Sequence record: OL744216.1
Source of the DNA: Enterobacter phage vB_ExiM_F4M1E
Reading direction: 5' to 3' (one strand)
DNA length: 64,000 nt
The position numbers and the translations under genes are program-made. The notes beneath the pieces are model-generated. The model saw nothing but the letters and a program-made list of their open reading frames with translations. It was not told where the DNA came from and made no database searches. The number at the start of each line of letters is the position of its first letter. Position 1 is the stretch's first letter. This document shows, piece by piece, positions 840-63,217 of this stretch.

Positions 840-842
840 TTG

Positions 843-872
843 TTGACGCCGGGCACCGCCCCGGCTTATAAT
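843..872 (+). promoter_or_regulatory. consensus sigma70 promoter with palindromic GC spacer
   Basis: ttgacg then ccgggcaccgccccggct then tataat; near-identical to the promoter at 592. Confidence 0.65.
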
Positions 873-13198: not shown

Positions 13199-13298
13199 AA
13201 CCCTCCCGTATCCCCTTCAGAGGATAATCAATGACTTATCCCCTCCGGGGGATAACCTACACAACCAGTATACACGAGCAGACTCAGATTGCAAGCAA

Positions 13299-13322
13299 TA
13301 AAAAACCGCCCGAAGGCGGTTT
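13299..13322 (-). terminator. rho-independent terminator
   Basis: aaaaaa then ccgcccgaaggcgg then tt. Confidence 0.55.
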
Positions 13323-14472
13323 AAATAACAAGGCTTGTGTCCAAAGGCACATAGGTATCAACCCTTGTCCCTCCCACACCGGGAAGAGTTCCTGCTGTCC
13401 CTCCTGAGTCCTGCCCTGTTCCGTAGAGGTTTCCGTCAATCAGCAGGTAAGATACTGAGTAATTTGATCTCATGGAGTGATAATCACCCTGTAAGGTGCT
13501 CGAAGGCATCGCCGTAAAAGAGTACCTCTGTGCCTGGGAAGGTCCCGTCCCTTGACTTTGACCACTGTTTGTCCCTGTGTAGTAAAGCACCCCTGTGACC
13601 GGATGGGTTACCCTTGCCGAGTAAAGACCTGTATAAATTACAGGCACGCCCTTGCTCCGATCGGATATGTTCTGCCACACCGCCGTCGGGTTTCGGTAAC
13701 TTGCATCACCAGTGGAACCTGTCCCCAGACTTCCTCCAAAGTGACGACCTTGGACATAAGTGGCATAAACAGACCCTGTATCCACAATCATAAAGACCCC
13801 AGTGTGTCCCGGGAAGAAGTCTTTTGTGATGAGGGATTGCAGTGCCCATGTACTAACTGCACCGCTGATAGACCCAGCCTGTCCGTAGTCAGACGACCCT
13901 GCCACATAAAAATGGCCACTTTTTCTGAGGAGGTAGGAGGTATCTGTGGAACCTTGGTCAAATGCAATTTTCTCAACGTCAGTGAAGTCATTCCTCATGG
14001 TCAGGGTTCTGACTTGATCGGCATTACCTTGTCCCAAACCTCCACTGTTATTCCTTCCACACATGGCGTACTGCCCATCTGTAAAGACCACAGCAAGAGA
14101 CCTGAACCCCAGAGAAACCTCTTTGATAGACAACCCTTCCGGATAGGTCATGTACTCAGAGACATCAGTCAGCCCTTGTATAACGGAGCCAAGGGCAGTG
14201 GGGAACATCTCGTTTGAACCCACGAACATCCACCTGCCGTCCTTCATCCTCATCAGCACTTGACGGTGAGCCATCCAAAAGTCTTCAACCCCTCCGGCGA
14301 GGAGGGTCCAAGTCTTGACAGCACCTCCAGTACCGCTGATATACAGGTCACCAATAACGTACAAATTGCCAGAATTTGCAAGTGCCCCTATTCCTGTCGA
14401 GGATGTCCCGATCTTTAGGATATTCCCCCCGGGGACAGGAGTTTTACCCCCTGCCAGCATAAGTTCAATCAT
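13321..14472 (-). CDS. RCC1-like repeat (beta-propeller) protein, paralog A
   Basis: repeated G-x-x-G-(Q)-x-G motifs (SGGLGQGN, YGQAGS, GGSLGTGS); N-terminus MIELMLAGGKTPVPGG matches the neighbour; ggagga SD before ATG 14472. Confidence 0.55.
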   Translation of the reverse strand: MIELMLAGGKTPVPGGNILKIGTSSTGIGALANSGNLYVIGDLYISGTGGAVKTWTLLAGGVEDFWMAHRQVLMRMKDGRWMFVGSNEMFPTALGSVIQGLTDVSEYMTYPEGLSIKEVSLGFRSLAVVFTDGQYAMCGRNNSGGLGQGNADQVRTLTMRNDFTDVEKIAFDQGSTDTSYLLRKSGHFYVAGSSDYGQAGSISGAVSTWALQSLITKDFFPGHTGVFMIVDTGSVYATYVQGRHFGGSLGTGSTGDASYRNPTAVWQNISDRSKGVPVIYTGLYSARVTHPVTGVLYYTGTNSGQSQGTGPSQAQRYSFTAMPSSTLQGDYHSMRSNYSVSYLLIDGNLYGTGQDSGGTAGTLPGVGGTRVDTYVPLDTSLVI

Positions 14473-14486
14473 GTCATCCTCCGATA

Positions 14487-15650
14487 TCAAACCAGCGCAG
14501 ACGTATCAAGTTCTTGGAACTCCCTGAGTTGCCCGGGAGGATGTCCCGGCAGAAGGCCGTCAGAAGTATTACCTGCCCCGTACAGCCGCCCATCGTCAAT
14601 ATAATACGACTGGTAGAAAGACCCACGAGAGCACGTCCAGTTTTTTGTTGGGTTCTGGGTTGCAACAGGCATCTCTGTGAATACCCCTAAGTATGCCCCG
14701 GAGTTCCAGTTTGGTGCTCCGTTTGCCGCAGAGTTATTCCCTGTGTGGTTCCAGAGACCATTTGTACCCCACACTTTTGCCATATACACCCCCATCACAA
14801 ACGGGGAATCTTCAATCGCCACAGAAGGTGCCGCCACTAAGGCCGATTGGGGGTACGCCGAGTTCGATCCGTTACCCCTTCCGATTGACCCTTGCGACTG
14901 GAATCCGTTGGACCAGATCTGGTGGTAATTCGGTATTGTTGCGTGACGACGACGGACAAAGAGGGCTTGGTTACCGCCAATAATTTCCGCATTCAGTGTG
15001 TGGGTGACAGTCGATATGAATGTCAGGGCGGTATTGTTGGCAAGAGTCCCTCCAAGCTGACCTTGGCTCCCGTTTCCCCATCCCCCAACCCTGCCATCCT
15101 CCAGCAACACATAAGTAGTATCGATGGTGGAATAATCCAGTGCAAACTGAACTATTGGAGATGGCCCATTTATCGCGCTCCAATAGTTCTTCCCTGTGGA
15201 GGTTGAGCCGAGACCACATCCACCGTTGGAGTTCAAACCCCGAAGCCTGAGCATACCAGAAGTGTATAGAACACCAATGGTCGTATGTGAGATGTCCCAC
15301 TGTTTAATTTCCAGCGCCCCGAGGATCTCCATTAGGCTTGTTACATCCGTTGGGGTGTACAGGTTTGTCGCCAAGGAGGCAAAATAGTTATTGACCCCCA
15401 CGAACATCCACCTGTCAAAGGAAGTCCTCCACAGGATGGCCCTGTAACCACATCGGAAATCGGCGACACCTGTTGCCAAAAGCGTCCACTCAGTGACTTT
15501 GGCTCCGGTCCCGCTGGTGTACAGGTTAGAGATTGTGTACATGTTCCCCGTGTCTGTCAGGGCAACAATCCCGCCATCCACTGTGCCAATCTTGGCTATT
15601 TTCCCCGGCGGTGCCGGGACCTTACCCCCGGTCATCATCAATTCGATCAT
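14487..15650 (-). CDS. RCC1-like repeat (beta-propeller) protein, paralog B
   Basis: GWGNGSQGQLGG-type repeats; N-terminus MIELMMTGGKVPAPPG; aggagga SD. Confidence 0.55.
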   Translation of the reverse strand: MIELMMTGGKVPAPPGKIAKIGTVDGGIVALTDTGNMYTISNLYTSGTGAKVTEWTLLATGVADFRCGYRAILWRTSFDRWMFVGVNNYFASLATNLYTPTDVTSLMEILGALEIKQWDISHTTIGVLYTSGMLRLRGLNSNGGCGLGSTSTGKNYWSAINGPSPIVQFALDYSTIDTTYVLLEDGRVGGWGNGSQGQLGGTLANNTALTFISTVTHTLNAEIIGGNQALFVRRRHATIPNYHQIWSNGFQSQGSIGRGNGSNSAYPQSALVAAPSVAIEDSPFVMGVYMAKVWGTNGLWNHTGNNSAANGAPNWNSGAYLGVFTEMPVATQNPTKNWTCSRGSFYQSYYIDDGRLYGAGNTSDGLLPGHPPGQLREFQELDTSALV

Positions 15651-15814
15651 AAATCCTCCTGTGAAAAGGTAATTTTATCACACATCCCTGTGAAATTCAC
15701 CTTACAGGGGTGCAATATCTGACTCAGGCACTTCCTGAATCACAGGTCGCCCACCGATATTTACCTCAACATACCAGTTCTCTGTATCAATAACCGCAGA
15801 AAGAGTCTTCCCGG

Positions 15815-16315
15815 TCAGACCTTCAAATGGGCCGGAGATGAATCGGATTTGTTGATATTCACTAAGTGACATTTATCTTCCTCGTTAATAAACAAAGACA
15901 TATCTGTCTTAAAGTCGTATTCTCTACGCCAAAAGACAGCCATAGTTTCGATGATTTGCGTCCCGTACATCGTACTGATGAACGAAATATCACCGTAGGT
16001 TAATTCCTTGCCAACAGGCAAGGAATCATAGAAGTGCCTCGGGACCGGAGACCAGAACTCAATACCCTTCCAGAAGAACTGGGCCTTTTGGTGCGTTCTC
16101 TCGTCGAAGGCATATTTATCCCAAGCATCTCTCCCTGCCATCCCGTCTCTTCCAGTCATGCCCATAGGGCCAGTTGGGCCGGGAGGTCCGGGTCTGGTAG
16201 CAATCTCAGCGGCAGCTATGTCCCGGATGCCAGTAAAGATCTCCCCTATGGTAACTTTGTACCCCTCCTTGTTAAGCACCTCAGAAAGGGCATCACAAAG
16301 ATTAAAGTTATCCAA
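15815..16315 (-). CDS. hypothetical protein with short collagen-like G-X-Y run (TTG start in track)
   Basis: GPPGPTGPMGMTGRDGMAGRD in the N-terminal third. Confidence 0.4.
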   Translation of the reverse strand: MDNFNLCDALSEVLNKEGYKVTIGEIFTGIRDIAAAEIATRPGPPGPTGPMGMTGRDGMAGRDAWDKYAFDERTHQKAQFFWKGIEFWSPVPRHFYDSLPVGKELTYGDISFISTMYGTQIIETMAVFWRREYDFKTDMSLFINEEDKCHLVNINKSDSSPAHLKV

Positions 16316-20596: not shown

Positions 20597-21040
20597 TTAT
20601 CCAAAGAACAGCACGATGACTGTGACAATGGTGTAGACAACAGCCCCGGCAATCAGAATCATGCCGAATGGCTTGCGTGTGAAACGCCGCAGGCGGGCAA
20701 ACAAGGAGTTCCTTTTCTTATGCTCCACAACAAAATTATTGCAGAGTGTCAGGAAAGCATTGATCTCCCCAGCATGTCCCGTCATAGCGAATGGAGTGTG
20801 CTTCAACTCTCCGGGGTTCGGGACTGCAATCGGACCGGAAGGTGTTTCTACCACCATACCGTGCTGATTTACCCGGTAAGTAACCCCTCGGACCTTATCT
20901 TCAAGGACGTATGCCCTGAATCCCCAAGTGTCCGCCTTGGCCCTGCGGATTGACCCGCACGAGTATTCCAAGCGATCGCCTCGGATCAGGTCGAGGTTAC
21001 CCTCTACCATCGGAAGTTGACGAACGTATGCGTAAAACAT
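20597..21040 (-). CDS. hypothetical protein (147 aa), C-terminal TM segment
   Basis: ORF. Confidence 0.5.
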   Translation of the reverse strand: MFYAYVRQLPMVEGNLDLIRGDRLEYSCGSIRRAKADTWGFRAYVLEDKVRGVTYRVNQHGMVVETPSGPIAVPNPGELKHTPFAMTGHAGEINAFLTLCNNFVVEHKKRNSLFARLRRFTRKPFGMILIAGAVVYTIVTVIVLFFG

Positions 21041-21245
21041 AGTCTTCCTCCCGTTGTAAGATTCCGCACACTCATTTTATCATGTTATGCAAAAATACAA
21101 CAGGAGACTCTTGGCAAAGTTAGCATGTTGTCATTTTACACAACAATTTCTCCGTTTCACATTTAAATTGCTAAAATACATTTTAATACATCGAAAATGC
21201 CTATCGTCGGGATCTGGTCAATAGGCATAACCTTACAGTGAATTT

Positions 21246-54411: not shown

Positions 54412-55302
54412 ATGATTCGTGCGTATCTTGGCGGAAGCCAACTGGATGTCGAATTTGGAACATTCGCCGGGGGTGAGCGTAGCGTCCGCATCAACGGTTA
54501 TATGCTGACAAGCCCATTCAACCCGGACCTGAAAGAGAACATTCCTGAAGGTAAAGACCTGGTGGTTTATGCTCACGTTGATAGTTCAGATGCCATCATG
54601 GATCTGCTTCTGTTTACAGATGCATTCAACCGCTTGGGCCGTGGTACGGGCCACCTGGTTAAAAAGGTGTGCTGCCTTCCGTACATTCCGTATGCCCGAC
54701 AAGACCGGGTAATGGTCCCTGGCGAACCACTGTCTGCCGAGGTGTTTGGCAGAATCATCGGTCTGTGCGCCTTTGACCGTATCATTGTGGATGACCCACA
54801 CTCGGATGTGTCTCCTTCACACATCAAAAACGTCTCCATCTTCGAACAATATGAACTGGCGTTGGATATTCTCGGCCCAGGGTTCTTTGATGATGCCGTT
54901 ATCGTAGCACCGGATGCTGGGGCGATTAAGAAGGTTATCAAACTGGCGAAGAAGGTTAATCACCGACATATCGGTGTGGGCACTAAGCATCGTGATCTTG
55001 TGACCAACAATATCACGGATACAACTTACGCAGGGCCGGATGTTAATGGTAAGCGTGTCATCATGGTGGATGACATCTGCGATGGTGGTCGAACCTTTAT
55101 CGAACTCGGGAAGGTGCTCCGTGCCAATGGTGCCAAAGAAGTGATTCTGTACACCACCCACGGCATTTACTCCTACGGCGCGGATGTGTTCCGTGATGTT
55201 ATCGACGAAGTTTATTCCGCTTACCCTTGGATGAAGAACCTCGAAGGCCGAAACGAAAATAATATTTTCAAATCGGTTGACAAGATGGTCGAGTTCAAGT
55301 AA
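54412..55302 (+). CDS. ribose-phosphate pyrophosphokinase (PRPP synthetase)-like protein; candidate ADP-ribose pyrophosphokinase
   Basis: Prs architecture: PYIPYARQDR, VAPDAGA, VIMVDDICDGGRTF PRPP-binding loop. Confidence 0.7.
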   Translation: MIRAYLGGSQLDVEFGTFAGGERSVRINGYMLTSPFNPDLKENIPEGKDLVVYAHVDSSDAIMDLLLFTDAFNRLGRGTGHLVKKVCCLPYIPYARQDRVMVPGEPLSAEVFGRIIGLCAFDRIIVDDPHSDVSPSHIKNVSIFEQYELALDILGPGFFDDAVIVAPDAGAIKKVIKLAKKVNHRHIGVGTKHRDLVTNNITDTTYAGPDVNGKRVIMVDDICDGGRTFIELGKVLRANGAKEVILYTTHGIYSYGADVFRDVIDEVYSAYPWMKNLEGRNENNIFKSVDKMVEFK

Positions 55303-55353
55303 TATTCACAACGTTCCGGGGCAATGTGCCCCGATTTCACTGAGGAGATTTAT

Positions 55354-57144
55354 ATGTTACATAATGACCTGCCTATTCTGTTTGCTGACTGGTACAAGCC
55401 GAGCCACATTTCCATGTACAGCAAAAAGTCTGAGATCGTACAGGACAACCTGACACCACGCTCAAGCAAACACTTCCAGCACTTCTCTGACAGTGACCAG
55501 CGTGTTATGTCTGCGGGTCTGCAAGGCTTTATTAAGTGGTTCCTGATTGAACACTTCAACCGCGAGTTCTTCGGTCGCCCGAAAGAAGAAGTTATCGGCG
55601 AGTTCAAAGAAATCTGTGACTTGGCGATCGGCCCGGACATGGTTGAAACGTGGGGCTTCGAAAAGCTGCATGACTTGGGCTATCTGCCTGTTGAAATCCG
55701 CGCCCTGCCGGAAGGTACACTTTCTCCGGTACAAGTGCCGCTGTTCACCATTCAGAACACGCACCCGGACTTCTACTGGCTTCCTAACTATCTGGAGTCA
55801 GTGATCTCCTCCGAAAACTGGAAAACCGTGACTACGGCAACCATTTTCTGGCAGTACCGTAAGCTGGCTGAACTGTGGGCGCAGAAAACCTGCGACAACA
55901 ACCTGCACGTCCCGTTCCAGATCCACTGCTTTGCTTATCGTGGTCAGGCTGGTACTCACGATGCGGCACAGTCTGAACTGGGTCAACTGATGAACTCTCA
56001 GGGCACCGACACCATCCCGGCGATCCTGTATGCAAACCGTTATTACGGTATGAAGGGTAAGTTCGTATCCGGCTCCATCCCGGCATCCGAGCACAGCGTT
56101 GCAACAACGAACATCGGCTTCATCATCGGACGCCTCCGTTCTGAGCATCCGGAAATGTCGCTGGATGACCTGCGTTTCCACGCAGAGGTCGAGTTCCTGC
56201 GTCGTTACATCACTGAAATCTTCCCGAAAGGTTTCGTGTCATACGTCGGCGACAGCTACGACTGGTTCCGTCTGATTACAGAGGGTGTTCGCATCCTGAA
56301 AGACGAAATCATGGCCCGTGACGGTCGTGTAGTATTCCGTCCGGACTCCGGCGTACCGGAAGACATCATCTGCGGAACACTCGACTGGCGCAAGATCGAG
56401 GATTTGGATGAAGCTGGCTCTCTGGAACGTGCTGCCGAGTGGGCACTGGAAAGCGCAGAAGAGGAAGTTCGCCAGGACACCCCGCACGGTGAATGTGGCG
56501 ATGAGACTGTTGAACGTTACTTCCTGTTCGATGGTGACCTGTACCTGATGAAGGGTGAGCTTGACTGGAACCGTTATGACAAGCAGTATTACTACATCGA
56601 CGGTAGTCGTGTCCTGTCTTACGAAAAAGCGGAACTGACCAACGAGCAGAAAGGCTCTGTTGAACTGCTGTACGATGTGTTTGGTGGTGACCTGAACTCC
56701 AAAGGCTATCGCACTCTGGATACCCACGTTGGCCTGATTTACGGTGACTCCATCACCGTGGCCCGTGCCAAAGAGATCTTCGAGCGCCTGGAAGCAAAAG
56801 GTTTTGCATCGAACAACGTTGTGTTCGGGGTTGGTTCCTTCACCACCCAGTTCAACACCCGCGATTCTCTGGGTCAGGCCGTGAAGGCTACTGGTGCGGT
56901 TATCGACGGTCAGCAGATCATGGTCGTCAAAGAGCCGAAGACCGACCTCGGTAAGAAGTCTGCACAGGGCTTCCTGAAGGTTGTTCGTGGCGAGGATGGC
57001 GAACTGAAGCTGGTCGATAACCTGCAACTTGAACAGGTTAACGACGCTGACAACGAACTTCGTGTTGTGTTCCGTGATGGCAAGCTGTTGGTTGACGAAA
57101 CGCTGACTGAACTTCGTGAGCGTGTCACAGCAAACCTGAAGTAA
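55354..57144 (+). CDS. nicotinamide phosphoribosyltransferase (Nampt)-family protein, 596 aa
   Basis: NAPRTase/Nampt-family fold; gaggag RBS before ATG 55354; track ORF 55324. Confidence 0.7.
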   Translation: MLHNDLPILFADWYKPSHISMYSKKSEIVQDNLTPRSSKHFQHFSDSDQRVMSAGLQGFIKWFLIEHFNREFFGRPKEEVIGEFKEICDLAIGPDMVETWGFEKLHDLGYLPVEIRALPEGTLSPVQVPLFTIQNTHPDFYWLPNYLESVISSENWKTVTTATIFWQYRKLAELWAQKTCDNNLHVPFQIHCFAYRGQAGTHDAAQSELGQLMNSQGTDTIPAILYANRYYGMKGKFVSGSIPASEHSVATTNIGFIIGRLRSEHPEMSLDDLRFHAEVEFLRRYITEIFPKGFVSYVGDSYDWFRLITEGVRILKDEIMARDGRVVFRPDSGVPEDIICGTLDWRKIEDLDEAGSLERAAEWALESAEEEVRQDTPHGECGDETVERYFLFDGDLYLMKGELDWNRYDKQYYYIDGSRVLSYEKAELTNEQKGSVELLYDVFGGDLNSKGYRTLDTHVGLIYGDSITVARAKEIFERLEAKGFASNNVVFGVGSFTTQFNTRDSLGQAVKATGAVIDGQQIMVVKEPKTDLGKKSAQGFLKVVRGEDGELKLVDNLQLEQVNDADNELRVVFRDGKLLVDETLTELRERVTANLK

Positions 57145-58764: not shown

Positions 58765-58840
58765 GCTGGATTAGCTCAGTAGGTAGAGCGCCTCACTTGT
58801 AATGAGGATGTCGCGGGTTCGATTCCTGCATCCAGCACCA
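58765..58840 (+). tRNA. tRNA-Thr (anticodon TGT)
   Basis: hand-folded cloverleaf: acceptor gctggat/atccagc, D arm gctcagtaggtagagc, anticodon loop cttgtaa, T loop ttcgatt, encoded CCA. Confidence 0.8.
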
Positions 58841-58846
58841 GATCAT

Positions 58847-58923
58847 GCAACGTTGCCGGAGTCTGGTAACGGCTCTCGCTGCAAACGAGATGATCACTGG
58901 TTCGAATCCAGTACGTTGCTCCA
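58847..58923 (+). tRNA. tRNA-Cys (anticodon GCA)
   Basis: acceptor gcaacgt/acgttgc, anticodon loop ctgcaaa, T loop ttcgaat, CCA. Confidence 0.75.
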
Positions 58924-58924
58924 A

Positions 58925-59001
58925 GCGCCTTTAGTCCAATTGGTAGAGGCACTACATTCAAAATGTAGGGGTTCCCAGTTCGAATCTGGGAAGGCGCACC
59001 A
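58925..59001 (+). tRNA. class-I tRNA with anticodon CAA (Leu-decoding by anticodon; isotype uncertain)
   Basis: acceptor gcgcctt/aaggcgc, anticodon stem ctaca/tgtag, loop ttcaaaa, 5-nt variable loop, A73, CCA. Confidence 0.6.
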
Positions 59002-59010
59002 AATTATCAT

Positions 59011-59046
59011 GTAACCTATTGACATAGTGTAATTATGCTGTTAAGA
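59011..59046 (+). promoter_or_regulatory. candidate promoter for the embedded AT-hook gene
   Basis: ttgaca, 17 nt, taagat. Confidence 0.35.
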
Positions 59047-59073
59047 TGAATACACTAACTCAATGGGGGCATT

Positions 59074-59448
59074 ATGAGCAAGGCTGCGATTGTAACTCGT
59101 AAGCGTGGTCGCCCAAGCAAAGAAGAGAGCACAGCAATTGCCCTTGAAAAGGCAATGCTTGATCTCCGAGGCGAATTGGCCCGTCTGACGCCGAAGGCCA
59201 TTACTACTCTCGAAAACCTGCTCACAACGGGTACAGAGAAGGTGAAGGAAACCACGGCGAAGTATATCCTTGAGCAGGCGAAAGAGGTTAACAACCTCTA
59301 CACTGAAGAGGATAACGAAGACGACGCAGCAGGCGGCACAACATCTGCCTCTTCTGAAACTCACGCTGGTTCTTCTGACGAGATGAAAAATGCCATCCCG
59401 TTGACTACCCAGATTCGTGAGTATAAAGTAGTAGGCGAAGATGATTAA
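59074..59448 (+). CDS. AT-hook-containing acidic protein (124 aa)
   Basis: RKRGRPSK AT-hook near the N-terminus; acidic C-terminus; embedded within the tRNA array. Confidence 0.55.
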   Translation: MSKAAIVTRKRGRPSKEESTAIALEKAMLDLRGELARLTPKAITTLENLLTTGTEKVKETTAKYILEQAKEVNNLYTEEDNEDDAAGGTTSASSETHAGSSDEMKNAIPLTTQIREYKVVGEDD

Positions 59449-59454
59449 TTGGAA

Positions 59455-59476
59455 GGCTCCCGAAGGAGCCTTTATT
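59455..59476 (+). terminator. rho-independent terminator
   Basis: ggctcc-cgaa-ggagcc then tttatt. Confidence 0.65.
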
Positions 59477-59613
59477 AGAAGTTCTCTTTTGACGGGCACT
59501 TGTTAACGACCCGCAGCATGGCGTCGGTGTACAACGGAGTTTGATGGCGAGGAAGGTCTATAGGGATCAGCGCAGATCCTTGGATATCAGGTGAGCCGTA
59601 CAAAAGAGAATTT

Positions 59614-59701
59614 GGGGAGTTATTTCCGTAGAGGTAGCGGTGCAGACTGTAAATCTGTTGTCATTGCGACTCGGGTGGTTCGACTCCATCACTCCCCACC
59701 A
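59614..59701 (+). tRNA. tRNA-Tyr (anticodon GTA), class II
   Basis: acceptor ggggagt/actcccc, anticodon loop ctgtaaa, long variable arm, T loop ttcgact, CCA. Confidence 0.75.
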
Positions 59702-59707
59702 AATTTT

Positions 59708-59802
59708 AGTAGGATGGCTGAGTGGCTTAAAGCAGCATCTTGGAAAGGTGTCGGTCGCAGTGACCCTGCGGCCCGGGAGTTCAAATCTCCCTCCTACTGC
59801 CA
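59708..59802 (+). tRNA. tRNA-Ser (anticodon GGA), class II
   Basis: acceptor agtagga/tcctact, 3-bp D stem with long D loop, anticodon loop ttggaaa, long variable arm, G73, CCA. Confidence 0.7.
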
Positions 59803-59806
59803 GATC

Positions 59807-59884
59807 GGATCGTTAGCTCAATTGGTTAGCAGCAAGGCACTTTTAATGCCGAGGTTCGGGGTTCGAGTCCCTGACGGTCCACCA
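59807..59884 (+). tRNA. tRNA-Lys (anticodon TTT)
   Basis: acceptor ggatcgt/acggtcc, anticodon loop cttttaa, T loop ttcgagt, CCA. Confidence 0.7.
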
Positions 59885-60044
59885 GAAAGAAGAGGGTCCA
59901 AGCTGGTACTGAGTGCTAAAGCATACTCTAAGCCCAGATGGAGGCCACCCTGAAGTCGTCCAACTGAAGGTCCCTGATTGAGTAATACTTCCCCGCCTGT
60001 CGGGTACAGTTCTCAGTCACACCGGACGGGGCGCACCCAATTAT
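59885..60044 (+). ncRNA. 160-nt non-tRNA spacer inside the array; possible structured RNA
   Basis: no cloverleaf or TTCGA T-loop found by hand; GC-rich internal complementarity (ccccgcctgtcgggt...accggacggggcg). Confidence 0.2.
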
Positions 60045-60120
60045 TGGTCTTTCGTATAATCGGTTATTACGGCGGACTGTTAATCCGTTTATCCGGGTTC
60101 GAGTCCCGGAGGACCAGCCA
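60045..60120 (+). tRNA. tRNA-Asn (anticodon GTT)
   Basis: acceptor tggtctt/aggacca (T1:A72), anticodon stem gcgga/tccgt, loop ctgttaa, T loop ttcgagt, G73, CCA. Confidence 0.65.
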
Positions 60121-60158
60121 ATACTTAATCAATAGTCATTTCGATGGCTATTCGTTAA

Positions 60159-60236
60159 GTCCTGGTAGACAAACTTGGTAAAGTCACCACCCTTTCACGG
60201 TGGGGTTTGAGGGTTCGATCCCCTCTCAGGACGCCA
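60159..60236 (+). tRNA. tRNA-Glu (anticodon TTC)
   Basis: acceptor gtcctgg/tcaggac, anticodon stem ccacc/ggtgg, loop ctttcac, T loop ttcgatc, CCA. Confidence 0.7.
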
Positions 60237-60325
60237 ATCTTTTAGGTCGGTAGATTAATGGAGTTGTGGAACTCCACCGGGTTCCAACCCCGGCTCCGGG
60301 GGTTCGACTCCTCACCTTCCTGCCA
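60237..60325 (+). ncRNA. aberrant tRNA-like element ending in CCA (possible Trp-CCA or Pro-TGG loop; fold ambiguous)
   Basis: T arm gggg-ttcgact-cctc and 3' CCA are present, plus two 5-bp hairpins with 7-nt loops (ggagt-tgtggaa-actcc; ccggg-ttccaac-cccgg); acceptor pairing is poor (5/7) and the 5' half is 7 nt too long. Confidence 0.35.
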
Positions 60326-60327
60326 TC

Positions 60328-60434
60328 TTTGAGGTGTTACAGTTAAATCCTGTGTCGGAAGTGCGAATCGCGCGATAGCTGCCAATTGACAACGGGTAAG
60401 GCTGTACAGGACTCGGACTCCCATCTCAAAACCA
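60328..60434 (+). ncRNA. 107-nt CCA-terminated tRNA-like/ncRNA element
   Basis: ends tttgagg...tctcaaa pair 7/7 and are followed by A-CCA; no canonical T loop inside; hairpin tacag-ttaaatc-ctgtg. Confidence 0.3.
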
Positions 60435-60440
60435 AATTCA

Positions 60441-60516
60441 GGTCCTATGGTATCAGCGGTAAACATACTCGCCTGTCACGCGAGAGTCACGGGTTCGAAT
60501 CCCGTTAGGACCGCCA
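60441..60516 (+). tRNA. tRNA-Asp (anticodon GTC)
   Basis: acceptor ggtccta/taggacc, anticodon stem ctcgc/gcgag, loop ctgtcac, T loop ttcgaat, G73, CCA. Confidence 0.8.
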
Positions 60517-60520
60517 CTTT

Positions 60521-60596
60521 TGGGGATTAGCTCAGTTGGTAGAGCAGGCTCTTGATAAGGGTCAGGTCGCTGGTTCGAGTCCAGCATCCCCAACCA
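60521..60596 (+). tRNA. tRNA-Ile (anticodon GAT)
   Basis: acceptor tggggat/atcccca (T1:A72), D arm agctcagttggtagagc, loop ttgataa, T loop ttcgagt, CCA. Confidence 0.8.
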
Positions 60597-60599
60597 ACA

Positions 60600-60676
60600 C
60601 GGTGTGTAGCTCAGTCTGGTAGAGCGATTGCTTTGGGAGCATTAGGTCCGAGGTTCGAGTCCTCGTACACCGACCA
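60600..60676 (+). tRNA. tRNA-Pro (anticodon TGG)
   Basis: acceptor cggtgtg/tacaccg, D arm gctcagtctggtagagc, loop tttggga, T loop ttcgagt, CCA. Confidence 0.75.
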
Positions 60677-60682
60677 ACTTAT

Positions 60683-60757
60683 TGCGAGGTAGTTCAGCGG
60701 TAGAACAGGGGTCTCATACGCCTCATGTCGGCAGTTCGATTCTGCCCTTCGCAACCA
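60683..60757 (+). tRNA. tRNA-Met (anticodon CAT; elongator, initiator or Ile-lysidine type not resolved)
   Basis: acceptor tgcgagg/cttcgca (T1:A72), loop ctcatac, T loop ttcgatt, CCA. Confidence 0.75.
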
Positions 60758-60762
60758 GCTTT

Positions 60763-60840
60763 GCTCCAGTAGCCCAATTGGCAGAGGCACTTGATTTAGG
60801 TTCAAGTCAGTGATGAGTTCGAATCTCTCCTGGAGTACCA
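60763..60840 (+). tRNA. class-I tRNA with anticodon TAG (Leu-decoding by anticodon; isotype uncertain)
   Basis: acceptor gctccag/ctggagt, anticodon stem cttga/tcaag, loop tttaggt, short variable region, weak 3-bp T stem, A73, CCA. Confidence 0.55.
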
Positions 60841-60847
60841 CATTAAA

Positions 60848-60924
60848 GCATCCATAGTGTCAGTGGTCTAACACTCCGTCCTTCCAAGTCGGAACCCTCG
60901 GTTCGAATCCGAGTGGATGCTCCA
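60848..60924 (+). tRNA. tRNA-Gly (anticodon TCC)
   Basis: acceptor gcatcca/tggatgc, loop cttccaa, T loop ttcgaat, U73, CCA. Confidence 0.75.
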
Positions 60925-60964
60925 ATTTAATTGCCCGTGGTGATCGGGTTATCTCACCCAGTGT

Positions 60965-61040
60965 AGGGGATTAGTTTAATTGGCAAAACAGCGGGTTTTG
61001 ATCCCGCTAACGCGAGGTTCGAATCCTCCATCCCCCGCCA
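60965..61040 (+). tRNA. tRNA-Gln (anticodon TTG)
   Basis: acceptor aggggat/atccccc with A1-C72 mismatch, D stem gttt/aaac, anticodon stem gcggg/cccgc, loop ttttgat, G73, CCA. Confidence 0.7.
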
Positions 61041-61042
61041 AA

Positions 61043-61112
61043 CTAAAGGGTTTTCGAAATGGTAGCGCTGCCGCTCTGCAAACCCACCCGCAAAGCTGCG
61101 AGAACCCTTTAG
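61043..61112 (+). ncRNA. 70-nt hairpin element closed by a perfect 10-bp inverted repeat
   Basis: ctaaagggtt at 61043-61052 and aaccctttag at 61103-61112 enclose ~50 nt with sub-hairpins (ctgcaaa loop; cgca-aagc-tgcg). Confidence 0.35.
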
Positions 61113-61113
61113 T

Positions 61114-61189
61114 GTGGCCTTAATTCAGCAGGTAGAATCCCCGGTTGTGAACCGGGCAGTCGTGGGTTCAAGTCCCACAGGTCACCCCA
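61114..61189 (+). tRNA. tRNA-His (anticodon GTG)
   Basis: acceptor gtggcct/aggtcac, anticodon stem cccgg/ccggg, loop ttgtgaa, T loop ttcaagt, C73, CCA; no encoded G-1. Confidence 0.75.
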
Positions 61190-61194
61190 ACAAT

Positions 61195-61287
61195 GGAAGA
61201 TAGGGCGTAGTGGTACGCACCCGGATTTGAACCCCGGCCCGCTGTGGCGACCCCACGGTGATAGTTCGACTCTATTATCTTCCGCCA
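61195..61287 (+). tRNA. tRNA-Ser (anticodon TGA), class II
   Basis: acceptor ggaagat/atcttcc, 3-bp D stem, loop tttgaac, 22-nt variable arm, T loop ttcgact, G73, CCA. Confidence 0.7.
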
Positions 61288-61291
61288 ATTT

Positions 61292-61379
61292 AGAAGAGTG
61301 GCGAAATCGGTAGCCGCACCGGACCGCTAATCCGGGGTCCCCTCGGGGCCTGAGAGTTCAAGTCTCTCCTCTTCTGCCA
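61292..61379 (+). tRNA. tRNA-Ser (anticodon GCT), class II
   Basis: acceptor agaagag/ctcttct, anticodon stem ccgga/tccgg, loop ccgctaa (C at position 33), long variable arm, T loop ttcaagt, G73, CCA. Confidence 0.65.
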
Positions 61380-61384
61380 AACAT

Positions 61385-61460
61385 GGAACTGTAGCTCAGT
61401 TGGTAGAGCGGTTGCCTGAAGAGCAGCGCGTCAGCGGTTCAAATCCGTTCAGTTCCACCA
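61385..61460 (+). tRNA. tRNA-Phe (anticodon GAA)
   Basis: acceptor ggaactg/cagttcc, D arm agctcagttggtagagc, loop ctgaaga, T loop ttcaaat, A73, CCA. Confidence 0.85.
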
Positions 61461-61502: not shown

Positions 61503-61530
61503 GCCCTCCCTTTGCGGAGGGCTTTTTTAT
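61503..61530 (+). terminator. rho-independent terminator after the tRNA array
   Basis: gccctccc-tttgc-ggagggc then tttttt. Confidence 0.75.
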
Positions 61531-61570
61531 TTGTGCTTTCGGTGATAAAATACCCGAAAGGAGGATTCGA

Positions 61571-62395
61571 ATGCTTGAGCTTATGGTTTGTACTAATCAA
61601 CCACAAAAACCACCACCAAGTGGTCAACTTTTTGTAAGTTCTGACCAAGACTACATATGGACCGTCCCTGACAGGGTGTTTAAAATCTCGATCGTCTGTG
61701 TTGGTGGGGGACAGCCATCTGCCAATATGGCAACCTCCGGAAAGTACGGTGGGGATCTTAGATGGACTAACAATGTCCCTGTTTCTCCCGGGGAGACATT
61801 GATTATCCGGACTACTTCCTCCACCCCGGCTTCCGAGACGGCAGGCAGAAGTTCTGCCGTATACCGAGGTTCTGCATCTGAAGAGAACCTCATCCTTCGG
61901 GCAGGTGGAGGAGGAAACTCCACTTATCCTTCTACCCTTCTCGGGGGCGGAGTAGGAGGAGGTAACGGAGGTGCTCCTTCGGGAAGGTCAGGAGGAGGGG
62001 CAGGCGGTTATTTGGGCAACGGAGGAGCCGGGGGCGGGAATCCTGCAACATCCGGCTCAGGCGGAGGAGGAGGAGGGGCACCATACACCTTCCAAGGGTA
62101 TAGTTTCGGAGGAGCCGGGGGCGGGGTTGGTGTTCACGGAAAAGGATCAGACGGGGCAGGCGGCACCTCTTCCGGAGGGGATACTGCGGGTGGGTCATAC
62201 GGGTCATATATCCAAGGGTCACCTGTATCCCAAGCCCCCACAAGAACCTCTGCCACCAAGCCAGGTAGATTTGGAGGAGGAGCCGGGTCAACCAATAGAG
62301 ACTTGGCGGCAATTCCGGGGTCCCCCGGTGCAGTAAGGATAGTCTGGGGGGAGGGTAGAGAGTTCCCTGATGCAGATAATGTTAAGGATGTGTAA
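61571..62395 (+). CDS. glycine-rich protein, paralog 1 (274 aa)
   Basis: aaggagg SD; conserved N-terminal module (MLEL...DYIWTVPDRVFKISIVCVGGGQPS), central GGxGG low-complexity region, conserved C-terminus GAVRIVWGEGREFP. Confidence 0.65.
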   Translation: MLELMVCTNQPQKPPPSGQLFVSSDQDYIWTVPDRVFKISIVCVGGGQPSANMATSGKYGGDLRWTNNVPVSPGETLIIRTTSSTPASETAGRSSAVYRGSASEENLILRAGGGGNSTYPSTLLGGGVGGGNGGAPSGRSGGGAGGYLGNGGAGGGNPATSGSGGGGGGAPYTFQGYSFGGAGGGVGVHGKGSDGAGGTSSGGDTAGGSYGSYIQGSPVSQAPTRTSATKPGRFGGGAGSTNRDLAAIPGSPGAVRIVWGEGREFPDADNVKDV

Positions 62396-63217
62396 ATGCT
62401 TGAACTTTTAGCAATGACTGGAAAAAAGTACGATCCTGACCCGACAGATGTTCAAGGTCAGGTTTTCTTCACTGCTACTACAGGAACTGACTGGACTGTC
62501 CCGGCTGGCGTCTACGCTATATCTGCTGTATGTATTGGGGGTGGTCAGCCGTCCGGATCAGGAAACATAAACGGTAGGGATGGCGGAGATCTGCGATGGA
62601 AAAACAAAATTCCAGTAACTCCGGGAGAGGTGCTGAGAATAAGAGCCTCTGTTGCAACAAATTATCTAACCTTTGCGGGCCAGGCATCTAACATCGTAAG
62701 AAAAGAGAGCGGAGAGGTCCTTCTTCAGGCCGGGGGCGGAGGAAACACTCAAGAATTATCAACCCCTCTCGGCGATGGTGTTGGCGGCGGAAACGGCGGG
62801 AAAGGGAACATGAGAGGCGGCGGCGGTGCAGGGGGCTATTCAGGGAACGGCGGTAACGGGTCAAGTAATGAAAAAGGGTGGCCTGGTACAGGTGGTGCCG
62901 GAGGTGGTGGTTGTTATTATGTCTACAACGGGACCACTTATGGCGGCGGCGGCGGAGGAACGGGCGTCCACGGAGAAGGGCCTAATGGAATTGGAGGTAC
63001 GGGAGGATCAGCCCCCTCTTCATCTGGAGGAGGATCAGGCAGTTGGTTCTCAACAACCCCCTCCGGACAGAAGCCTTTAAGTGCCAACGGACCTAATGGC
63101 GGCGACTTCGGAGGAGGCGCAGGAGGTTCATCCGGTTACAACGGGACCAGGGGTGCTGTCCGAATCATCTGGGGCAAAGGTCGAGAATTTCCTTCTACGG
63201 GGACTAAAGATGTCTAA
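62396..63217 (+). CDS. glycine-rich protein, paralog 2 (273 aa)
   Basis: start immediately follows the paralog-1 stop; MLEL...DWTVPAGVYAISAVCIGGGQPS ... GAVRIIWGKGREFP. Confidence 0.65.
   Translation: MLELLAMTGKKYDPDPTDVQGQVFFTATTGTDWTVPAGVYAISAVCIGGGQPSGSGNINGRDGGDLRWKNKIPVTPGEVLRIRASVATNYLTFAGQASNIVRKESGEVLLQAGGGGNTQELSTPLGDGVGGGNGGKGNMRGGGGAGGYSGNGGNGSSNEKGWPGTGGAGGGGCYYVYNGTTYGGGGGGTGVHGEGPNGIGGTGGSAPSSSGGGSGSWFSTTPSGQKPLSANGPNGGDFGGGAGGSSGYNGTRGAVRIIWGKGREFPSTGTKDV

Follow-up and report, generated by a model that had tools for sequence, protein, structure and literature searches.

In gradient-purified virions of the Escherichia phage W70, the proteins W70_237, W70_238, and W70_239 (43, 40, and 41 kDa, respectively), all members of phrog_4219, were detected with 233, 196, and 141 spectra, which is comparable to the counts for baseplate proteins, and they are the sole virion proteins encoded outside the structural module (PMC11370258). 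In the jumbo phage phAPEC6 there are eleven RCC1-like proteins with a mass of about 40 kDa, of which six to eight were detected in virions and which were published as “DNA condensation proteins” (PMC7247149). Neither paper established a function for these propellers (PMC11370258, PMC7247149), and the paper describing phage rV5 does not mention the family. Here we describe two adjacent genes, A and B, on the minus strand of a stretch of 64,000 nucleotides from Enterobacter phage vB_ExiM_F4M1E (OL744216.1; hereafter “the window”), which encode proteins of this family. A and B are additions to a known family without established function, and their tandem arrangement is typical of that family. In the reading that we favor, and to which we give about an even chance, both proteins are late, virion-borne accessory binding modules that would be docked to the particle by a short N-terminal tag and would bind a ligand with the surface of the propeller. 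Their presence in the virion is proposed by analogy with the published homologs and not from A and B themselves.

Two RCC1-like propellers encoded in tandem

Gene A (14487–15650, minus strand; ATG at 15650, stop at 14487) codes for 387 amino acids (aa) and gene B (13321–14472, minus strand; ATG at 14472, stop at 13321) for 383 aa, although the mechanical open reading frame (ORF) of gene B reaches upstream to a TTG at 14490. The initial annotation of this DNA, made from the sequence alone, had reported two adjacent related ORFs at 13321–15650; these coordinates bracket exactly both coding regions, and the minus strand had not been stated there. End to end, A and B are 32% identical (BLASTP, E 2e-44), i.e., they are diverged tandem paralogs whose similarity is far beyond chance, and a tblastn search of the window yielded no third propeller copy. 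The common N-terminal motif is present as it had been described, the proteins starting with MIELMMTGGKVPAPPGKIAKIGT (A) and MIELMLAGGKTPVPGGNILKIGT (B), in which MIELM is followed by G-G-K and then by P-x-P. Ribosome-binding sites as read from the sequence are cAGGAGGAtttATG for gene A (15654–15660, minus strand; 3 nucleotides 5′ of the ATG at 15650) and cGGAGGAtgacATG for gene B (14477–14482, minus strand; inside the 14-nucleotide A–B spacer). The contexts are alike and not identical: the AGGAGGA that had been proposed for both genes holds for A, while B has GGAGGA. Since terminator and promoter scans detect neither kind of signal in the spacer, A and B are probably cotranscribed.

Profiles of the RCC1 type match A and B significantly by E-value, yet with scores under the curated Pfam cut-offs. 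For WD40_RLD (PF25390), E-values of 1.7e-10 (A) and 1.1e-14 (B) correspond to only 41–55 bits versus a gathering score of 150, and for RCC1_2 the scores of 17.6–20.1 bits (E about 1e-3) compare with a cut-off of 22 (the RCC1 repeat profiles are PF00415 and PF13540). The glycine-rich strings that had drawn attention to the pair, VGGWGNGSQGQLGG in A and SGGLGQGNADQ in B, are both present and coincide with sub-threshold Pfam RCC1/RCC1_2 matches at residues 177–200. Among proteins of solved structure, the best phmmer match is the third RCC1-like domain (RLD3) of HERC1 (E 2e-11, for B), and UVR8 and RPGR are matched at about 1e-5. AlphaFold2 models built from alignments of 24–26 homologs reach a mean predicted local distance difference test (pLDDT) score of 87.0 and a predicted template modeling (pTM) score of 0.86 for A, and 89.9 and 0.88, respectively, for B. 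Both models are all-β, with 27–28 strands in seven groups and a first strand that begins at residue 18. Foldseek aligns them with UVR8 (E 7e-21 for B and 2.7e-20 for A; template modeling score 0.75–0.79 over about 390 columns), and the other full-length matches of both models are RPGR, the RLDs of HERC1/2, and RCC1 (1a12, E 5e-16). As modeled, A and B are seven-bladed RCC1-like β-propellers composed of four-stranded blades. The propeller that had been suggested from the glycine-rich repeats is therefore also what structure prediction returns (pLDDT 87–90, Foldseek matches to UVR8, RCC1, and HERC2 with E-values reaching about 1e-20, and the WD40_RLD E-values).

The eukaryotic RCC1-like domains of UVR8, RCC1, HERC1/2, and RPGR share with A and B the seven-bladed fold and the glycine-rich repeat signature, but they are 13–19% identical to the phage proteins, which lack any Ran or chromatin context, and the function of eukaryotic RCC1 cannot be transferred to A and B. 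The chromatin role of RCC1 depends on Ran and on nucleosomes, both of which are lacking in bacteria and phages. This dependence speaks against the view, suggested by database names, that A and B are DNA condensation or chromosome-organizing proteins, a view that we consider very improbable. It draws only on a name carried over from eukaryotic RCC1 and on speculation in the phAPEC6 (PMC7247149) and W70 (PMC11370258) papers, whereas the best structural match of the models is UVR8 and not RCC1, nothing like a DNA-binding extension stands out in A or B (no formal analysis was made), and hypervariability is not expected of a DNA-packing protein.

Among phage proteins, both A (E 2.3e-34) and B (E 8.1e-34) match positions 426–786 of the 867 positions of the PHROG 4219 profile. 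This phage group is labeled “regulator of chromosome condensation” and recurs in the Vequintavirinae and, more distantly, in jumbo phages. The initial annotation had called such propellers uncommon and had found no function to name for them; this is superseded by the recurrence of the family and by the homologs published as virion components (PMC11370258, PMC7247149). An exhaustive search with a family profile gave 41,044 matches, mostly giant multi-repeat RCC1 proteins, and no more than about 15 of the representatives fall into the specific family. A and B fit the type of W70_237–239, i.e., proteins of about 380–400 aa with a single full-length propeller and the N-terminal peptide M-[ILF]-E-[LM]-[LMI].

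The closest described counterparts are found in the Escherichia phages W70, A5-4, and A73 of the genus Septuagintavirus, the sister genus of Certrevirus within the Vequintavirinae, in which a tandem triplet of propeller genes lies among small hypothetical genes. W70_239 is 45% identical to B and 33% identical to A, and the other two W70 proteins are 26–29% identical to A and B. W70_237–239 resemble A and B in belonging to PHROG 4219, in their length (377–399 aa), in their MLEM/MIELM N-terminus, in their tandem order, and in the terminator downstream. They differ in that W70 has three copies instead of two and in that W70, unlike the window, lacks the promoter-like motif TGTGATAAAAT directly upstream of the propeller cluster. 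The terminator after W70_239 is identical to that after gene B, which argues for positional orthology of the two loci.

More distant are the propellers of jumbo phages (GAP32 gp1, PBECO4, and phAPEC6 gp003/005/007/009/549/551). They resemble A and B in fold, in size, and in a P-x-P-G-x-I-x-K lead-in to the first strand, but these multi-copy proteins belong to other lineages, show about 26–29% identity, and do not carry the M-x-E-L-M tag (GAP32 gp1 starts with MLPFSRIIQYG). Fold searches in BFVD find the propeller as a stand-alone protein in GAP32, PBECO4, and CR9, and as a domain of annotated tail fibers in the Pseudomonas phages Littlefix and PollyC. In PVP-SE1, the tail-fiber module ends with gene 40 (604 aa, annotated as “tail protein”), which combines an RCC1-like propeller with a Big_2 Ig-like domain; its propeller aligns (hhalign probability 96.9%) from the GGG..P.P.G.hKK lead-in that A and B have in common. 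In these tail proteins the propeller is thus fused to Ig-like or fiber domains and belongs to a tail-fiber module or carries that annotation, whereas A and B are stand-alone propellers which follow a tag of 15 residues and are encoded far from the tail module.

Two other classes were considered and rejected. As classical tail fibers or receptor-binding proteins A and B do not qualify, their genes lying in a non-structural block of the minus strand at a great distance from the structural module; in front of the propeller there are only some 15 residues and no sizeable anchor domain, and resemblance to proteins annotated as tail components is confined to the level of the fold, with no clear homology to a characterized tail-fiber tip domain. 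A relationship with inhibitor propellers of the BLIP type, which the initial annotation had also put forward, is not supported: BLIP-II is not among the top 50 Foldseek matches of either model in the PDB, and by inspection the N-terminus of A and B, with an acidic residue at position 3 and no hydrophobic core, does not look like a signal peptide.

The propeller slot and its putative transcription signals

The window derives from a Certrevirus-like (Vequintavirinae, rV5-like) myophage. Its proteins share a median identity of about 95% with those of Klebsiella phage KaOmega, and mostly 95–100% between 22 and 57 kb. A and B lie in a minus-strand block that also encodes ribonucleotide reductase, ThyX, DNA ligase, a CCA-adding enzyme, and many small proteins. 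The slot which they occupy is flanked on one side by genes for proteins of 128, 67, 166 (collagen-like), and 56 aa and on the other side by a terminator and genes for proteins of 77 and 110 aa, and its synteny is kept across KaOmega, CR8, and the contigs L002, L005, and L006. The slot is empty in CR8 (for CR3 and PBES 02, DNA matches are likewise confined to the flanks), holds one A-type gene in KaOmega (gp208) and POP15, one B-type gene in the metagenomic loci L005 and L006, and A followed by B in the window and in contig L002, i.e., copy number ranges from 0 to 2 in Certrevirus-like genomes. When viral contigs were scanned with an alignment of the family, only three loci came up, which were informative on copy number and on little else. 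At the DNA level, a search with the A–B locus matched the flanks only, the propeller genes being too diverged.

KaOmega gp208 and POP15_208 (both from Certrevirus and annotated as hypothetical) are orthologs of A that share its syntenic position, upstream motif, and ribosome-binding site, but, unlike in the window, they are single copies without a B-type partner; gene B has no counterpart in KaOmega. A is 82% identical to POP15_208 and 55.6% identical to gp208, which places the latter pair at about the fifth percentile of the ORFs shared with KaOmega, although the genes on either side are about 95% identical in that phage. Because the contents of the slot vary and A is only 55.6% identical to gp208, the propeller genes are accessory, copy-variable, and much faster-evolving than their surroundings. 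The earlier idea that duplication led to diversified binding specificity fits this hypervariability of the locus.

Some neighboring and related genes may be mentioned here. The conserved 166-aa protein (phrog_16086; 15815–16315, minus strand) encoded directly upstream of the propeller cassette contains seven collagen-like G-X-Y triplets, GPPGPTGPMGMTGRDGMAGRD, a run that led to the annotation “tail fiber protein” in the relative PcCB7V. The 3′ end of its gene overlaps, out of frame, a conserved ORF of 56 aa (15702–15872, minus strand; phrog_27941) which is unannotated in CR8. PVP-SE1 gp179 (L010 2992–3294) is a fragment of 100 aa that covers the first two blades and is 48% identical to residues 5–89 of B. 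At this length it was rejected as a full homolog; it looks like the remnant of a lost or disrupted propeller copy, and about 2.2 kb after it are unannotated.

Upstream of gene A lies TGTGATAAAAT (15672–15682, minus strand), an extended −10-like motif and the putative late promoter of the A–B unit. It is invariant in 6 of 6 aligned loci, about 20 nucleotides before the ATG, whether an A-type or a B-type gene follows, and in these six loci conservation is striking over the 50 nucleotides that precede the first propeller gene. The motif resembles the putative late motif of rV5, TggTAaAAtA, which was extracted by Kropinski et al. from upstream of rV5 late genes. The form TGnTAAAAT is found just upstream of the KaOmega structural genes gp3, gp11, gp12, and gp20; in the minus-strand block of KaOmega (100–139 kb) it occurs only before gp208, which is RCC1-like, and before gp221. 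In W70 it lies 16–34 nucleotides upstream of W70_136, 128, 127, 119, and 114, and in the window six matches compare with 2.1 expected. Strict matches to the early promoter consensus of Certrevirus (PMC7344957) number five in the window, none of them near gene A.

At its other end the unit is closed by a strong intrinsic terminator, AAACCGCCTTCGGGCGGTTTTTTATTGC (13296–13322, minus strand), which a terminator scan recognizes by its 8-bp stem and T-run and whose region is conserved in CR8, CR3, and KaOmega. A putative sigma-70-like promoter, TTGCAA-16-TATACT (13267–13294, minus strand; consensus match), follows and would restart transcription for the small genes downstream. AAACCGCCTTCGGGCGGTTTTTTATTGC is identical in the window and in W70 (L008 5160–5190) despite the highly diverged coding sequence around it, and the shared terminator may serve as a recombination boundary for the exchange of cassettes. 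Given a late-type motif upstream and a terminator after B, the A–B unit is better read as an insulated cassette with a late-type signal and its own terminator. The pair had at first been placed in an early region, a reasonable guess in view of a minus-strand block with nucleotide-metabolism genes, but one at odds with a conserved late-type promoter-like motif and a terminator that belong to the cassette itself.

These signals also bear on whether A and B might be early, non-structural proteins that bind host targets inside the cell, for takeover or against defenses, in which case the virion signal of their relatives would be contamination. Such a role, which we consider improbable, would suit a long minus-strand block of small uncharacterized and nucleotide-metabolism genes, an accessory and fast-evolving locus, and the use of eukaryotic RCC1-like domains as platforms for protein–protein interaction. 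Against it speak the cassette's own terminator, a motif of the kind that also precedes structural genes, and the lack of an early consensus promoter before the cassette. It is also disfavored by the proteomic data, in which the three W70 paralogs, at 141–233 spectra each, passed the cut-off of 25 spectra while no other non-structural protein did so, and by independent virion detection in phAPEC6 (PMC7247149).

Further promoter-like sequences were recorded in the window. The only other intergenic motif of this type in the minus-strand block, TGATAAAAT (21074–21082, minus strand), precedes a gene for a 147-aa protein (20597–21040, minus strand; phrog_12909, “membrane protein”, moron/host-takeover category), an arrangement that KaOmega keeps (gp221), and the gene may be a further one of the late type embedded among earlier genes. 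TGCTAAAAT (21169–21177, plus strand) lies between genes, and no ORF of 50 aa or more follows it; the motif may drive divergent expression of a small RNA or peptide, or may occur by chance. At 591–621 and 842–872 (plus strand) there are two near-identical strong promoters of the sigma-70 type (GTTGAC...TATAAT), whose spacers hold a GC-rich inverted repeat, CCGGGCACCG(T/C)CCCGG, which may act as an operator or hairpin within early promoters.

The N-terminal tag and the glycine-rich proteins C and D

In the AlphaFold2 models, residues 1–10 of A and 1–12 of B, which include MIELM, have pLDDT values below 50, and the tag is thus predicted to be disordered. Defined by the regular expression M[ILFVM]E[LMIF][LMIVF] at the start of the protein, it heads each of the 40 stand-alone family members that were retrieved, A and B included, and is missing from every giant RCC1-repeat protein returned by the exhaustive profile search. 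No protein of the structural modules of KaOmega or W70 carries it. Only four genuine ORFs of the window start with the tag, namely A, B, and two further genes, C (61571–62395, plus strand; 274 aa) and D (62396–63217, plus strand; 273 aa). C and D encode tandem glycine-rich paralogs (phrog_4474, weak match to Pfam Gly_rich_2) that are unrelated to the propellers and start with MLELMVCTNQPQKPPP and MLELLAMTGKKYDPDP, respectively (M-L-E-L-[ML]). The codons for the tag differ at synonymous sites among A, B, C, and D, which indicates that conservation acts on the peptide.

Upstream of gene C, a terminator (61503–61522, plus strand) is followed by the promoter-like motif GGTGATAAAAT (61541–61551, plus strand) and by a GGAGGA ribosome-binding site, the same architecture of motif and ribosome-binding site as before gene A; the motif common to the C–D locus and the propeller pair is GTGATAAAAT. 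C and D lie just upstream of the spanin genes; in KaOmega, these are followed by the terminase and the structural module. KaOmega has a single glycine-rich gene at this place, gp315 (MLELLA...), beside the spanins and immediately upstream of the terminase/structural module, i.e., the copy number of the glycine-rich locus is two in the window versus one in KaOmega. The tag is also found on the glycine-rich product of PVP-SE1 gene 19 (MFEMM...) and on 19 of 120 listed glycine-rich homologs, some of them on contigs of 83–290 kb. Relatives of Gly_rich_2 are fused to Laminin_G_3, fn3, and cadherin-like domains, and protein C has no relative of solved structure by sequence.

A cluster of 18 transfer RNA (tRNA) genes (58765–61460, plus strand) lies between the glycine-rich pair and genes for the salvage of nicotinamide adenine dinucleotide (NAD), i.e., phosphoribosyl pyrophosphate (PRPP) synthetase (54412–55302) and NAPRTase (55324–57144). 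The cluster of the window contains a tRNA-Ser(tga) which was not seen among the annotated tRNAs of the corresponding KaOmega region, and that region carries a coding sequence, gp312, which is absent from the window.

The simplest interpretation of a conserved peptide that is predicted to be disordered and is common to two unrelated, copy-variable cargo families is that it acts as a shared signal for docking or incorporation. Going one step further, and more tentatively than for the function of A and B as such, the pattern M-h-E-h-h...P-x-P might be a portable virion-incorporation tag by which interchangeable propellers or Gly_rich_2 domains are loaded at a single shared site of the particle, their genes arriving in late-promoter cassettes that are gained, lost, and duplicated between genomes which otherwise hardly differ. 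With the same reserve, its users would be the Vequintavirinae and some larger phages that are represented only by metagenomic contigs of 83–290 kb. We know of no earlier description of a tag common to two domain families and combined with a cassette architecture of the late type.

The internal protein (IP) loci of phage T4 offer a comparison: they encode virion-borne proteins, are hypervariable in content and copy number, and their products, unrelated in other respects, begin with a short conserved peptide. They serve here as a working analogy, since T4 internal proteins and A/B have in common a short conserved N-terminal peptide on unrelated, hypervariable proteins carried in the virion, while the tag sequences show no similarity and the prohead proteases belong to different families; a place of A and B inside the capsid is hypothetical. 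A and B might thus be internal head proteins that are ejected together with the DNA and, for example, block a defense protein of the host inside the cell, the tag being a capsid-targeting signal. Virion association at low-to-moderate spectral counts, genes off the tail module, hypervariability, and a tag common to unrelated proteins would all agree with such a scenario, and the authors of the phAPEC6 study also suspected a role inside the capsid (PMC7247149). We nevertheless hold it to be unlikely, if the strongest of the rival readings, since fusions of related propellers and glycine-rich domains with Ig-like, lectin-like, or fn3 domains, like the annotated tail proteins, point to the outside of the particle, and the sequence gives no sign of N-terminal processing. 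The prohead protease of the closest relative is of the XkdF/S78 type (Peptidase_S78_2) and not of the T4 gp21 type, and the tag is unlike the capsid-targeting sequence (CTS) of T4, with no L/I-x-E site at a sensible distance and the glutamate at position 3 only. A T4-type CTS with cleavage by gp21 was therefore rejected as a class for A and B, in view of the XkdF-type protease, and is kept as a functional analogy.

Possible roles of the propellers

If A and B are indeed late binding modules borne by the virion, the first 15 or so residues, a flexible peptide (M-[ILF]-E-[LM]-[LM]...P-x-P), would dock each protein at a common site of the particle, and the propeller would provide a rigid binding platform whose fast-evolving surface recognizes a ligand. 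A slot with 0 to 2 genes (3 in the equivalent cluster of W70) would then give each phage a different set of specificities, and A and B would be two alternative specificities carried together. That the ligand resides on the host surface, so that A and B would be accessory adhesins or host-range modulators on the tail or baseplate fiber network, seems to us plausible, if somewhat less than evenly probable; we lean to the outside of the particle because related propellers and glycine-rich domains occur in annotated tail proteins and in fusions with Ig-like, lectin-like, and fn3 domains.

A passive function would require less of the proteins. As ornaments of the capsid, neck, or sheath, A and B would stabilize the particle without recognizing a specific ligand, which accords with the virion association of their homologs and with propellers being stable scaffolds. 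We give this little credence, for the genes are dispensable, as seen from their absence from CR8, CR3, and phiTE, their copy number varies, they diverge far faster than true structural genes, and spectral counts are at the level of baseplate proteins and not of decoration proteins.

Several points weigh against our preferred reading of A and B as tag-docked, late binding modules. The inference of virion presence rests on homologs that are 28–45% identical, none of which is of the A type or comes from the phage studied here. The late-type motif TGnTAAAAT is absent directly upstream of W70_237, so that the promoter argument cannot be transferred to the phage for which proteomic data exist; besides, TGTGATAAAAT is a consensus match only and could represent a sigma-70 promoter of the ordinary extended −10 kind with early activity. 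Classical trimeric fibers do not resemble a monomeric propeller that carries a tag of 15 residues, and both the ligand and the docking site of A and B are postulated. A survey of phiTE by electron cryo-microscopy mentions no propeller or glycine-rich component, phiTE itself being without RCC1 genes, and the tagged glycine-rich protein of PVP-SE1 is annotated as hypothetical and not as a virion protein. Finally, hypervariability and a common N-terminal peptide fit internal, ejected proteins equally well.

The names “chromosome condensation” and “DNA condensation” that databases attach to these proteins are almost certainly misleading and are still propagated. Of the virion proteins of therapeutic and biocontrol phages of the rV5-like type, very few show sharp differences when near-identical isolates are compared; A and B would belong to these few, which makes them candidate determinants of host range or infection efficiency. 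Should the tag prove to direct incorporation, this would be of real interest both in practice and conceptually, and foreign domains could then be displayed on these phages, or loaded onto them, by simple means.

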